Of a stretch of DNA of 18,593 bases, positions 2,874 to 18,593 are shown piece by piece. The translations under genes and the position numbers were made by a program. Below the pieces are notes generated by a model that saw only the letters and a program-made list of their open reading frames with translations, did not search any database and was not told the DNA's origin. Location: positions 1 through 18,593 of IMG/VR virus record IMGVR_UViG_2534681832_000034; one strand, given 5' to 3'. Source of the stretch: a virus. Taxonomy: Duplodnaviria > Heunggongvirae > Uroviricota > Caudoviricetes. Position 1 is the stretch's first letter. Each line of letters begins with the position of its first letter.

Positions 2874-2923
2874 TAGATTGCTCTAATCTGGAGTCACCTG
2901 GCGTTTTCAGTTTGAGGTCGGAG

Positions 2924-3169
2924 ATGCAATCTGATTTTTTACAGTTAGCGATCGCTTTTGCAGGATATGTTTGTATTGGCTTCTGTGTATACATGATCAG
3001 CCGAAAAATGCTTGTCGATATCGACCGCAAAGAACGAGCAGAGGAGATCTTAGTATGGATTTTCTTTGGCGCGGTCTGGCCATTAGGGATCATGTTTGCT
3101 GCAACATTTCTTCTGATGTGGATATTCACCCTTCCAGGTGATTTCTATAGAAAAAAAGCCAGACATTGA
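2924..3169 (+). CDS. Small membrane protein, 81 aa, two predicted TM helices
   Basis: ATG 2924 preceded by GAGGTCGGAG; hydrophobic stretches LAIAFAGYVCIGFCVYMI and ILVWIFFGAVWPLGIMFAATFLLMWIF; TGA 3167-3169. Confidence 0.55.
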   Translation: MQSDFLQLAIAFAGYVCIGFCVYMISRKMLVDIDRKERAEEILVWIFFGAVWPLGIMFAATFLLMWIFTLPGDFYRKKARH

Positions 3170-3239
3170 TACAATCGTTGCGGGTGCTTGAGGCTATCTG
3201 CTTCAGGCATTACCCGAAAAGCAGATAGAAGAAAGCCCC

Positions 3240-3307
3240 AGATAACATTACGCGTCCTGCAAGACGCTTAACATTAATCTGAGGCCATATCTATGCTTAG
3301 CATACGT
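3240..3307 (-). ncRNA. sok: Predicted Sok-like antisense RNA covering the mok start region
   Basis: Minus-strand promoter: -35 TTGACC (plus 3337-3332), 18-bp spacer, -10 TAATCT (plus 3313-3308). The transcript would run antisense across the mok ATG (3293). A stem GCGTC/GACGC at about 3251-3266 is a candidate 3' structure. Ends are approximate. Confidence 0.45.
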
Positions 3308-3499
3308 AGATTAGCCTCTTACCGACCAAAAGGTCAAGGAGAAGCAGGCTATGAAGCAGCAAAAAGCGATGTTAATCGCTCTGATCGTCATCTGTTTAAC
3401 CGTCATTGTGACGGCACTGGTAACGAGGAAAGACCTCTGCGAGGTACGAATCCGAACCGGCCAGACGGAGGTCACTGTCTTCACAGCCTACGAATCTGA
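3293..3499 (+). CDS. mok: mok-like overlapping reading frame (translation-coupling ORF of the hok locus)
   Basis: ATG 3293; 68-codon ORF overlapping almost all of hok in another frame, as in hok/mok/sok loci. Confidence 0.5.
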   Translation: MLSIRRLASYRPKGQGEAGYEAAKSDVNRSDRHLFNRHCDGTGNEERPLRGTNPNRPDGGHCLHSLRI

Positions 3500-3506
3500 A
3501 AGGTAA
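3351..3506 (+). CDS. hok: Hok/Gef-family type I toxin, 51 aa
   Basis: Translation MKQQKAMLIALIVICLTVIVTALVTRKDLCEVRIRTGQTEVTVFTAYESER matches the Hok family pattern (LIVxCLT...LTRKxLCExRxRxG..EV.AF.AYES). AAGGAG precedes the ATG. The leader (GGTGCTTGAGGC..., TAGCCTCTTACCG, CAAGGAGAAG) resembles the R1 hok mRNA as I remember it. Confidence 0.8.
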   Translation: MKQQKAMLIALIVICLTVIVTALVTRKDLCEVRIRTGQTEVTVFTAYESER

Positions 3507-3577
3507 GAGACCTGGCGGGGAGAGATCTCCGCCACTCTTAGTGTGTCAGGTATCCTCAATGCACCCTTTCATCTCCA

Positions 3578-3606
3578 AATAAAAAAGCTCCCGAAGGAGC
3601 TTTAAA
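3578..3606. terminator. Bidirectional rho-independent terminator (end of minus-strand late operon; probable hok mRNA 3' end)
   Basis: Stem GCTCC (3587-3591), loop CGAA, GGAGC (3596-3600), flanked by A6 upstream and TTT downstream, so the minus-strand transcript ends hairpin + U6. Confidence 0.7.
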
Positions 3607-14861: not shown

Positions 14862-15082
14862 GTCTTCCTCCTGAAGAAAAATTATCAATGAAGTCCTTTG
14901 TTACCGTGCCGCTTTGTTTAATTCATCAAGAACAGAATCAGGAACCAAAGCGGCGACTACGCTGGCTGTGCTGGCCTTATTTGCTGATGCTTCCGCAAGC
15001 GCGGTACCGATAGCATGGTTATAAGCAGTGAACCGCCCCGGAAATCCTGGAGACTAAACTCCCTGAGAAAGAGGTAAACAGG

Positions 15083-15409
15083 ATGACTAAAAATACTCGT
15101 TTTTCCCCCGAAGTCCGTCAGCGGGCGATTCGTATGGTTCTGGAAAGTCAGGATGAATATGACTCACAGTGGGCGGCAATTTGTTCCATTGCCCCAAAGA
15201 TTGGCTGTACGCCGGAGACTCTGCGTGTCTGGGTTCGCCAGCATGAGCGGGATACCGGGGGCGGTGATGGTGGGCTCACCAGCGCTGAACGTCAGCGTCT
15301 GAAAGAGCTGGAACGTGAAAATCGTGAACTGCGCCGCAGTAACGATATCCTTCGCCAGGCTTCCGCTTATTTTGCGAAGGCGGAGTTCGACCGCCTCTGG
15401 AAAAAATGA
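15083..15409 (+). CDS. IS3-family transposase OrfA (HTH, leucine-zipper)
   Basis: ATG 15083; [21 protein letters not shown]... typical IS3-family OrfA; ends in the A-run frameshift window. Confidence 0.9.
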
Positions 15410-16296
15410 TGCCACTGCTGGATAAGCTGCGTGAGCAGTACGGGGTCGGACCGGTATGCAGCGAACTGCATATTGCCCCGTCAACGTATTACCATTGTCA
15501 GCAACAGCGACATCATCCGGATAAACGCAGTGCCCGTGCGCAGCACGACGACTGGCTGAAGAGAGAGATACAGCGCGTATACGATGAAAATCATCAGGTG
15601 TACGGTGTGCGTAAAGTCTGGCGTCAGTTGTTACGGGAAGGAATCAGGGTGGCCAGATGTACAGTGGCACGTCTCATGGCGGTTATGGGACTTGCCGGTG
15701 TTCTCCGGGGTAAAAAGGTCCGTACGACCATCAGCCGGAAAGCCGTTGCCGCAGGCGACCGCGTAAACCGTCAGTTCGTGGCAGAACGACCTGACCAGCT
15801 GTGGGTGGCTGATTTTACTTACGTCAGCACATGGCAGGGCTTCGTCTATGTGGCGTTTATCATTGATGTGTTTGCCGGATACATCGTGGGGTGGCGGGTC
15901 TCATCGTCTATGGAAACGACATTCGTGCTGGATGCGCTGGAGCAGGCGTTGTGGGCCCGTCGTCCGTCTGGCACCATCCATCACAGCGATAAAGGCTCTC
16001 AGTATGTGTCACTGGCCTATACGGAGCGACTAAAAGAAGCCGGATTACTGGCATCAACAGGGAGTACAGGCGACTCGTATGACAACGCGATGGCTGAGAG
16101 CATCAATGGTCTTTACAAAGCGGAGGTAATACACCGTAAGAGCTGGAAAAACCGTGCAGAAGTGGAACTGGCCACACTAACGTGGGTGGACTGGTATAAC
16201 AATCGACGATTGCTGGGAAGGCTGGGCCATACTCCTCCGGCAGAAGCAGAAAAAGCTTATTATGCTTCCATCGGAAACGATGATCTGGCAGCCTGA
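15406..16296 (+). CDS. IS3-family transposase OrfB (DDE catalytic domain), expressed as OrfAB by -1 frameshift
   Basis: DDE-type motifs ([23 protein letters not shown]); -1 overlap with orfA at A-AAA-AAT-G (15400-15409). Confidence 0.9.
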
Positions 16297-17010
16297 GTTC
16301 ACAGATAAAACACTCTCCAGGAAACCCGGGGCGGTTCACAGTTATGGCTACGTTGGCGCTTTCATTCGCTCGTTCATACTGCTGTTGTAACGCAGTTGTG
16401 GGTGCTGTTGTCTGGTTGAAAACAACCCCAAACTGTTCAGTTGCTACTTTCAGAGATTCAATTTGCTCTTCTGTTAGTGCTGGTGGGGGAGTGGCAGTGC
16501 CGCCGCCTGAACCAGAGCCTGACGAGCTTTCTGAGCCAGTGTTAAGGGCCTGGTTAATCTCCCCCATTGCAGCGACTAAACTTGATGTATTAAGCGCGTT
16601 AACAGCGTCCTCAAGCGATTTAGTAATATTCACATCACCAATGGCAATAGAGATCGGCAGTTCTGAAACTTCTCGCTCATTAGCACGGCAGTAAACATCC
16701 CAACCAATATCGAGTTGAAGCAGCATTGACAGATCTGCATAACCAGCCAACAGGTCCGCGTGCTTAGTTGCCAGTTCTCCAATGTTCGTTAAGCCGGTTG
16801 TGGTTGTTCTGATCGTTGAAACATAGCTGGTAATAGTGTCGGGATAGACAATTGTATCCAGAATTAATCCGGTCAATTCTTCTGCAAGCAGTTTTGCTGT
16901 GTTAGCACTGTTTCGTGCCGATGTTATGGCACCAGGTGTTTTCATCCCACCGGCGGCGGCCAATTTTTTATATGCGGATAACTGGTAGTCTTTTTCCAGC
17001 ATGATATCTC

Positions 17011-17464: not shown

Positions 17465-17749
17465 ATGCAGATGGAGCTAATAAGCCGCAAAGAGTTCGAT
17501 AGCCGTGTAACCAGCGGTGAACTCGACAACTTGCAGGCTATCAAGGTGAAAGAAGGCTTTTGCCTCATTGGGAATCAGAGCGGAATAAATCGCGTTTTTA
17601 TGCTTCGCCGTACGGATTTGAAGCCATTTGTCTGGAAGAACGAAATTGGTCCCAGCTCATACGCTCAAACGAGGGGGTGCCACAACCTGGCCTTTTTCTA
17701 CAAAGACGAGCTTTCTGTGGTTGATATTCAAGGGTTACAACATGTTTAA
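17465..17749 (+). CDS. Hypothetical protein, 94 aa, translationally coupled to the rdgC homologue
   Basis: ATG 17465 with GGAG at 7-nt spacing (the track's 17393 start is TTG within the operator); stop TAA 17747-17749 overlaps the next ATG (ATGTTTAA). Confidence 0.7.
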
Positions 17750-18152
17750 GCACTGGAAAAACATTACTATTTATAAACTTTCTCGTGAGGCGGATCTGAC
17801 CGACTTAGAAGATAAAAAGAAAATGATCCTTTTCACGCCATGCGGTAGTCAGGATATGGCCAAGTTCGGTTTTGTATCGCCATTTGGTGATAATTCTGAA
17901 GTTATCGCTATGCATGGAAATGGTTTTATCCTTGTTGAAGCAAAGCGCGAAACAAAAATTCTTCCCCCGCCGGTTATCCAGCGAGCTATTCAAGAAAAAA
18001 TTGAAAAACTTGAGCAAGAACAAGCGCGTAAACTGAAGAAAACAGAGAAGGACTCCCTGAAAGACGAAGTTCTGCATTCTCTTCTGCCACGGGCTTTTTC
18101 AAAGTTTTCTGTTATCCAGGCGATCTACGACGGTTCATCGATAGGAATTTAA
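17742..18152 (+). pseudogene. rdgC: RdgC-homologue (recombination-associated protein), truncated to 136 aa by mobile-element insertion
   Basis: [16 protein letters not shown]...[13 protein letters not shown]...[52 protein letters not shown] closely parallels the N-terminal ~130 aa of E. coli RdgC (~300 aa); similarity stops at about 18131-18136 and a stop follows 5 codons later. Confidence 0.7.
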
Positions 18153-18593
18153 ATCCCAAAAAGATTAAAAAACACCCAAAAACGGATGTTTATTCAACAC
18201 TGCCTGCGTGCCATGAGTGCACCGCCGTCAATTAAATGGATCTTATCGATTGATACTGCATATCACTGATGGTTTTTTACCCCATTCCCCTGAAAATGGA
18301 CGCAACTTCTCCGATGCGGCTCTCAGCCGCACACCCGCTGTTGCGCCAGTGGCTCATGCATCAGGACCAGCTCTGTCAGACGGTAGCCCCGCTTCAGCCC
18401 CGTAAAACGCATCTGACCTCCGCACAGGATGCACTTCAGCGGGTCAACCTTCAGTAACCGCTGATACATCCCTCTCCACCTGATTTGCATCGCCGTCTTT
18501 CTCACCGTCTCCGTTATGACGTACACAACATCTTCCAGTAACCGGCGCTTCACCGGACTCAGGAAACCGTAGTACCTCACCATACGGAACCCC
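18137..18593 (-). mobile_element. End of an IS91-family (rolling-circle, HUH Y2 transposase) element, partial; continues beyond window
   Basis: Junction lies immediately 3' of GTTC (18133-18136), the tetranucleotide IS91-family elements insert beside; no terminal inverted repeat; transposase 3' end reads toward the junction. Confidence 0.5.
18323..18593 (-). CDS. IS91-family transposase, C-terminal fragment (N-terminus outside window)
   Basis: ORF open to the window edge; ...VRYYGFLSPVKRR... and a CxxCGG motif resemble the IS91/ISCR transposase C-terminus as I remember it; TGA at 18323-18325. Confidence 0.5.
   Translation of the reverse strand, partial: GFRMVRYYGFLSPVKRRLLEDVVYVITETVRKTAMQIRWRGMYQRLLKVDPLKCILCGGQMRFTGLKRGYRLTELVLMHEPLAQQRVCG

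Follow-up and report, generated by a model that had tools for sequence, protein, structure and literature searches.

An IS91-type insertion sequence in hrdC, the rdgC homologue of a P1-like plasmid prophage of Escherichia coli

The stretch of DNA considered in the current analysis, referred to here as the window, comprises 18,593 bp and has been identified, through an exact look-up of its truncated open reading frame, as the entire contig AIGF01000063.1 of the E. coli draft genome assembly GCA_000249795.2. The window encodes parB, parA, an initiator of the RepB/RepA type, genes of the ppfA/upfB type, uhr and hrdC, in an order collinear with plasmid pE2865-1 and phage P1, and its backbone is the par/rep/hrdC region of a P1-like plasmid prophage. 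The source host is a pathogenic E. coli carrying such a prophage; one protein of a second contig of the same assembly, AIGF01000101.1, is named 'Escherichia coli DEC8A' by its source. The gene order in P1 is uhr-hrdC-dmt (table in PMC10695390). The uhr homologue of the window matches the CDS WP_001177859.1 of pE2865-1, which occupies an equal relative position, and a Pfam search with its product of 94 residues gave no match. The features that concern us are the following.

15029-16338, plus strand: a second insertion sequence, IS1203/IS629 (IS3 family), 1310 bp, with the ends TGAACCGCCCCGG… and …CCGGGGCGGTTCA
17465-17749, plus strand: uhr homologue, 94 aa, intact, upstream of hrdC and overlapping its start by 8 bp
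17742-18136, plus strand: 5' part of hrdC (P1 homologue of rdgC), codons 1-131 and two bases of codon 132
18133-18136, plus strand: GTTC target tetranucleotide, hrdC nt 392-395, abutting the oriIS end
18137-18152, plus strand: IS-derived tail of the truncated hrdC frame (…S-SIGI-stop), giving a fusion product of 136 aa
18137-18593, minus strand: first 457 bp of an IS91-type element, counted from the oriIS end (ATCGATAGGAATTTAAATCCC...); the element is cut by the contig end
18323-18592, minus strand: 3' end of tnpA, last 89 codons and stop, encoding an IS91 family HUH/Y2 transposase and reading toward the hrdC junction

The IS1203/IS629 copy is flanked by a 3-bp duplication, CAG (15026-15028 and 16339-16341), and its target, relative to pE2865-1, is the 3' part of a 262-aa gene of the upfB type; an ALIL frameshift pseudoknot has been assigned to it from Rfam at 15364-15480. 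A sok antitoxin RNA has also been identified at 3182-3356 on the plus strand (Rfam RF01794, 115 bits). The stretch around it, 2888-3580, does not align with pE2865-1, where a DUF3800 gene region stands instead. The presence of the sok RNA suggests that this P1-like variant has an addiction module of the hok/sok type.

The hrdC frame starts with an ATG at 17742 and ends at 18152. Its DNA is 100% identical to the intact hrdC/rdgC of P1, P7 and many P1-like plasmids through 18137, where the identity stops abruptly. Base 18137 (A) is common to hrdC and the IS, and the break is therefore placed after the GTTC at 18133-18136, with which the 5' part of hrdC ends. The fusion product consists of 132 native HrdC residues followed by SIGI and a stop. 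Its residues 5-130 correspond to positions 3-129 of the 298 positions of the Pfam RdgC model PF04381 (E=3e-37), which falls short of the full-length RdgC domain of about 300 residues; the intact allele of pE2865-1, with 301 residues, covers model positions 3-298. Judged by its sequence, the hrdC of the window is a truncated remnant of a true member of the RdgC family. A naturally short RdgC of about 136 residues has been considered and rejected, as the intact alleles of P1, P7 and related plasmids encode 301 residues.

Seven independent IS91-type junctions have been aligned, three of them in hrdC (the window and the plasmids pSF4-1 and p22AR0434B) and four elsewhere on O111 plasmids. All seven have GTTC (five sites) or CTTG (two sites) immediately 5' of ATCGATAGG; by our own arithmetic the chance of either tetranucleotide is 2/256 per site, and GTTC/CTTG is the target described for IS91 (PMC13181058). 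The element always starts with ATCGATAGGAATTTAAA in these alignments, which fixes the IS boundary at 18137 of the window. The junction of the window thus shows insertion 3' of the target tetranucleotide, abutting oriIS, as is characteristic of the IS91 family. The oriIS end is a putative assignment made from its position and from homology to characterised IS91; its single-strand folding revealed no notable hairpin in comparison with shuffled sequence (z=+0.7 and -0.8). The 457 bp of the IS present in the window are 99.8% identical, with one indel, to bases 1-458 of complete copies of 1828 bp on O111 plasmids.

The product of 18323-18592 (...VRYYGFL...CILCGG...) is identical in 89 of 89 residues to the C-terminus of WP_000937595.1, an IS91 family transposase of 395 aa, and matches positions 296-355 of the 356 positions of the NCBIfam model NF033538 (E=4e-8). 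The full-length transposase scores 291.5 bits on this model against a cut-off of 125 and, as read from copies that are 99.8-100% identical, comprises the Pfam domains Zn_Tnp_IS91 and Y2_Tnp (PF14319 and PF04986). It is an HUH/Y2 transposase with an N-terminal zinc-binding domain, the arrangement that defines the IS91 family, and the window holds its last 89 codons only. The ISCR clade Ia model NF052416 gives the transposase 15.7 bits against a cut-off of 925, so that the element does not match the ISCR clade.

A simple insertion predicts, on the far side of the element, a gene call starting at Met148 or Met152 of HrdC. Both predicted C-terminal fragments, of 150 and 154 residues, are present in the protein collection as found by exact look-up, the 150-residue fragment on AIGF01000101.1 of the same assembly (GCA_000249795.2) and the 154-residue version in other assemblies; a protein search with the C-terminal half of HrdC returned contig-edge fragments only, as cluster representatives. 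AIGF01000101.1 opens with 257 bp that are identical in 257 of 257 positions to the ter end of complete IS copies and that contain, on the minus strand, codons 1-56 of orf121. The terIS end, …GCAGCCGCCAGGCTGCCTACTCG, is joined directly to AACTAAACGTATC…, the hrdC stretch found downstream of GGTTC in intact alleles. After hrdC the contig carries dmt and other P1 genes, among them TerB-like, DnaB-type helicase and ANT-domain genes, in the order of the gene table.

The structure of the interrupted gene is accordingly GGTTC / ATCGATAGG ... CCTACTCG / AACTAAACG, and across the window and AIGF01000101.1 both junctions are contiguous with hrdC, with no base repeated and none lost. Since terIS is joined to the very next hrdC base, there has been neither target duplication nor deletion, and transposition terminated properly. 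Five to six other complete copies also end in …CCTACTCG. A subterminal hairpin of terIS, GCAGCC(GCCA)GGCTGC (AIGF01000101.1 positions 170-257), lies 7 nt from ...CTCG and folds far better than shuffled sequences (z=-3.8); a palindrome of this kind beside CTCG is likewise a feature of the IS91 family. A second sample, SRR13262281, has both the left junction (locus L016) and the right junction (locus L031).

The clean joint at terIS bears directly on the question of cargo. One-ended transposition could in principle have carried adjacent donor DNA into this hrdC, since terIS is reportedly passed over in 1-10% of IS91 events (PMC13181058) and pSF4-1 provides such an event in hrdC, with 3.5 kb of extra DNA. 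Read-through would, however, place non-IS DNA at the joint between terIS and hrdC, as it does in pSF4-1, whereas here the 3' part of hrdC follows immediately on the cleavage site of terIS (...CCTACTCG/AACTAAACG), and the same direct joint recurs in SRR13262281. We consider cargo in this copy very unlikely, and the most likely structure is a clean and simple insertion of about 1.83 kb, properly terminated at terIS and free of cargo.

It has also been considered whether the assembler created a chimeric junction by extending the contig end erroneously into a repeat, hrdC being really intact. The contig does end in a repeat, and draft assemblies are known to yield chimeric ends. Against this, the 136-aa junction-specific product is encoded by at least 24 contigs belonging to independent assemblies and read sets other than this one, which were produced with different assemblers, the junction DNA has been confirmed in all of the 10 loci fetched, the reciprocal junction is present both in the same assembly and in SRR13262281, and the break falls exactly at an IS terminus next to a canonical target. 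The probability of a chimera is close to negligible. The exact junction was not found in scans of species-representative genomes, IMG/VR and JGI metagenomes, as is to be expected of a feature found at strain level in E. coli, and a BLAST search with the junction against complete E. coli genomes, PLSDB plasmids and phage records retrieved no record containing it.

The end of the contig at 18593 is probably due solely to the multi-copy nature of the IS, a repeat not bridged by short reads, and the middle 1.1 kb of the copy is unassembled. Each contig breaks off within the element, and short-read data do not distinguish one copy from two. Two IS91 copies, or an IS91-mediated cointegrate, might then lie between the contigs (hrdC'-IS91-other DNA-IS91-'hrdC), as would arise if the hrdC copy recombined by homology with another IS91, for example that of a pO111-type virulence plasmid, and carried extra DNA along. 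The IS type of the window is multi-copy on O111 plasmids, with up to 22 places per genome, and rearrangements of a P1-like backbone mediated by the IS91 family have been published for pSvP1 (PMC6906374). The two junctions nevertheless match each other reciprocally, at precisely the same nucleotide position, as expected of one insertion, and no two-copy structure at the hrdC site was seen among the complete records searched; a cointegrate would, moreover, still have begun as a simple insertion in hrdC. We regard such an arrangement as unlikely. A single IS copy bridging both contigs is the parsimonious reading, and with high confidence we propose that one IS91-type copy (about 1828 bp, with orf121 and tnpA between oriIS and terIS) is inserted in hrdC of the P1-like prophage. 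Contigs AIGF01000063.1 and AIGF01000101.1 can be joined through this one copy, and for the purpose of annotation the 136-aa 'RdgC' ORF and the RdgC-family fragment of 150 aa represent the halves of a single interrupted gene.

The features of the element point to IS91 itself. In a sister copy with 100% identity, on pSF4-1, the stop of orf121 overlaps the start of tnpA by 1 nt (TGATG); the presence of orf121 upstream of tnpA, here observed with the overlap region read in the sister copy, marks IS91 as against IS801, IS1294 and ISCR. The two ends of the element differ, with only a weak resemblance of 8-9 nt (ATCGATAGG against CGAGTAGG), so that it has two different ends without long terminal inverted repeats and makes no target duplication, as expected in the IS91 family. 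IS91 is known for cleavage of terIS at CTCG, for the lack of target duplication and for an orf121 that overlaps tnpA (PMC13181058). On the strength of the target tetranucleotide, the two different ends, the CTCG site, the orf121/TGATG arrangement and the size, the element is IS91 proper by the features tested; as to the named isoform, we leave it as 'IS91-type'.

The first-pass annotation had described an RdgC homologue truncated at the GTTC of 18133-18136 by the origin end of an IS91/ISCR-type element, with a transposase C-terminus reading toward the junction and no inverted repeat. Its coordinates and features hold, with P1 hrdC stopping at residue 132 of 301, GTTC or CTTG standing at every junction compared and the minus-strand frame proving to be an IS91 family transposase and not some other protein; the remark on inverted repeats is essentially right, and of the double family label the IS91 half stands while the ISCR half falls away. 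It had further proposed that the missing 3' portion of rdgC be sought beyond the window edge, and this portion has been recovered on AIGF01000101.1. The continuation of the element past 18593 could be followed in part, the far end (last 257 bp) being available there and the middle of the copy not. Its suggestion of cargo past the edge finds no support here, terIS lying directly against the 3' part of hrdC. The premise that such elements mobilise adjacent DNA is borne out at hrdC in pSF4-1, with 3.5 kb of a virulence plasmid.

In pSF4-1 (NZ_CP077443.1) the insertion lies after nt 126 of hrdC, at the GTTC of nt 123-126. The insert of 5367 bp (locus L002, 6569-11935) contains first the IS, its terIS intact, and then 3.5 kb 100% identical to the O111 virulence plasmid pO111_3, where this region stands beside an IS91 copy. 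The cargo stops at a CTTG within a gene for an autotransporter, which has consequently reached the phage-plasmid in truncated form only; beyond this point hrdC continues with no base missing. The event is a textbook one-ended transposition. The window and pSF4-1 form a natural pair in the same gene, one showing proper termination and the other read-through of virulence-plasmid DNA. A third insertion is found in p22AR0434B (NZ_CP195464.1), where a related IS of 1830 bp makes a simple insertion after nt 636 of hrdC, with the same no-duplication geometry and a CTCG end.

Two further observations concern IS91-type copies at other sites. On pO111_3 itself (NC_013366.1, locus L032, 2698-2802) the terIS of IS91 stands beside a 37-bp remnant of an IS629 end followed by a second terIS end of 68 bp, an arrangement resembling a scar left by IS events that were nested or took place in succession; at the corresponding place pSF4-1 shows a single terIS. 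NZ_CP045829.1 (locus L005, 5011-10237), a plasmid with an intact hrdC of the P1 type, carries the IS91 type of the window next to another GTTC; about 350 bp past the ter end of that copy lies cnf3, a toxin gene, which may likewise represent IS91-linked cargo on a phage-plasmid.

The hrdC gene tolerates disruption. It has been scored as non-essential in a genome-wide CRISPRi screen of P1 (PMC10695390), and among 554 complete records of E. coli that contain hrdC of the P1 type, 81 (about 15%) have no match covering at least 80% of the gene. In the records opened the causes include IS100, IS-rich resistance regions and IS91-type elements, and other assemblies, as well as one phage record, contain frameshifted copies. 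In locus L017 (SRR7249701), loci L024-L026 and locus L020 (phage vB_EcoM-813R1) the allele is divided into two ORFs although no IS is present, the result of either a frameshift or a sequencing error. A contig of SRR28172162 (locus L027, 1-96) has a junction at another GTTC, hrdC nt 328-331, with unrelated DNA upstream. A recurrent truncation at nt 551 has also been noted in NZ_CP142795.1 (locus L021, 4551 onward) and in about seven listed records, after which follow IS fragments (a transposase fragment, IS30 family, IS3 family and IS1); the one such record opened is plasmid pSX48-4-mcr-1. This truncation is a shared rearrangement distinct from the IS91 events.

Several of the contigs with the 136-aa product have different rep and par alleles, from which it follows that the insertion is not private to one strain, and it has probably moved between P1-like backbones by recombination. 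The junction, common to at least 24 draft assemblies or read sets, can serve as a lineage marker for strain typing. The three independent IS91-type insertions in hrdC share one orientation, all at plus-strand targets. The gene contains 19 target tetranucleotides, 10 on the plus strand and 9 on the minus strand, and an orientation bias was rejected, three of three not being significant given 10 sites against 9. That hrdC is a preferred or selectively favoured landing site for IS91-type elements, and that its loss is adaptive in EHEC lineages, is very unlikely. The three hits in one orientation and the spread of this insertion over backbones with different rep and par alleles would agree with it, and a non-essential gene with 19 targets explains them equally well; were a favoured loss true, relief of an RdgC-like brake on RecA in cells with Stx prophages would be a possible route.

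IS91 transposition proceeds by a rolling-circle route through a single-strand intermediate (PMC13181058). Following the published work on IS91, the HUH/Y2 transposase would nick at oriIS, the displaced single strand would reach as far as terIS with its CTCG cleavage site, and after circularisation it would integrate beside a GTTC/CTTG tetranucleotide. In the window the element stands immediately 3' of GTTC, with oriIS toward the 5' part of hrdC and tnpA antisense to the gene. Indirect support for rolling-circle transposition comes from the one-ended event of pSF4-1, which ends at a donor CTTG. The interrupted hrdC is predicted to be a pseudogene yielding at most an N-terminal fragment of 136 aa that would lack more than half of the RdgC fold. 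In intact plasmids hrdC and dmt overlap by 4 bp, which makes a polar effect on dmt plausible; transcription from the uhr-hrdC promoter into the overlapping downstream dmt would probably be interrupted. The feature is a known IS, of known behaviour, in a dispensable gene; it is nothing new in kind and implies no new biology.

Comparison with known systems places both partners of the insertion. Intact P1 HrdC, as the 301-aa allele, matches E. coli RdgC (PDB 2OWL) over residues 5-300 (E=1e-112), whereas the HrdC of the window differs from it in being the product of a disrupted gene, with residues 1-132 kept and 4 residues encoded by the IS. The element resembles IS91 in its GTTC/CTTG target at oriIS, the lack of duplication, a terIS with CTCG and a subterminal palindrome, a size of about 1.83 kb, the 1-nt overlap of orf121 and tnpA (TGATG) and a transposase with Zn_Tnp_IS91 and Y2_Tnp domains. 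With ISCR elements (ISCR1, ISCR2 and others) it shares the family-level mechanism, the layout with oriIS downstream of tnpA and the capture of adjacent DNA by read-through, but it differs from them in its recognisable terIS, its orf121 and its proper termination in the hrdC of the window. The insertions of pSF4-1 and p22AR0434B are like that of the window in gene, IS family, orientation, GTTC/CTTG target and absence of duplication, and differ in the point of insertion (nt 126 and nt 636 respectively, against nt 395 in the window). The pSF4-1 event is further set apart by its 3.5 kb of extra DNA, and that of p22AR0434B by a diverged variant of the IS, whose 1830 bp are about 91% identical overall to the 1828-bp type of the window and 82% identical over the first 457 bp.
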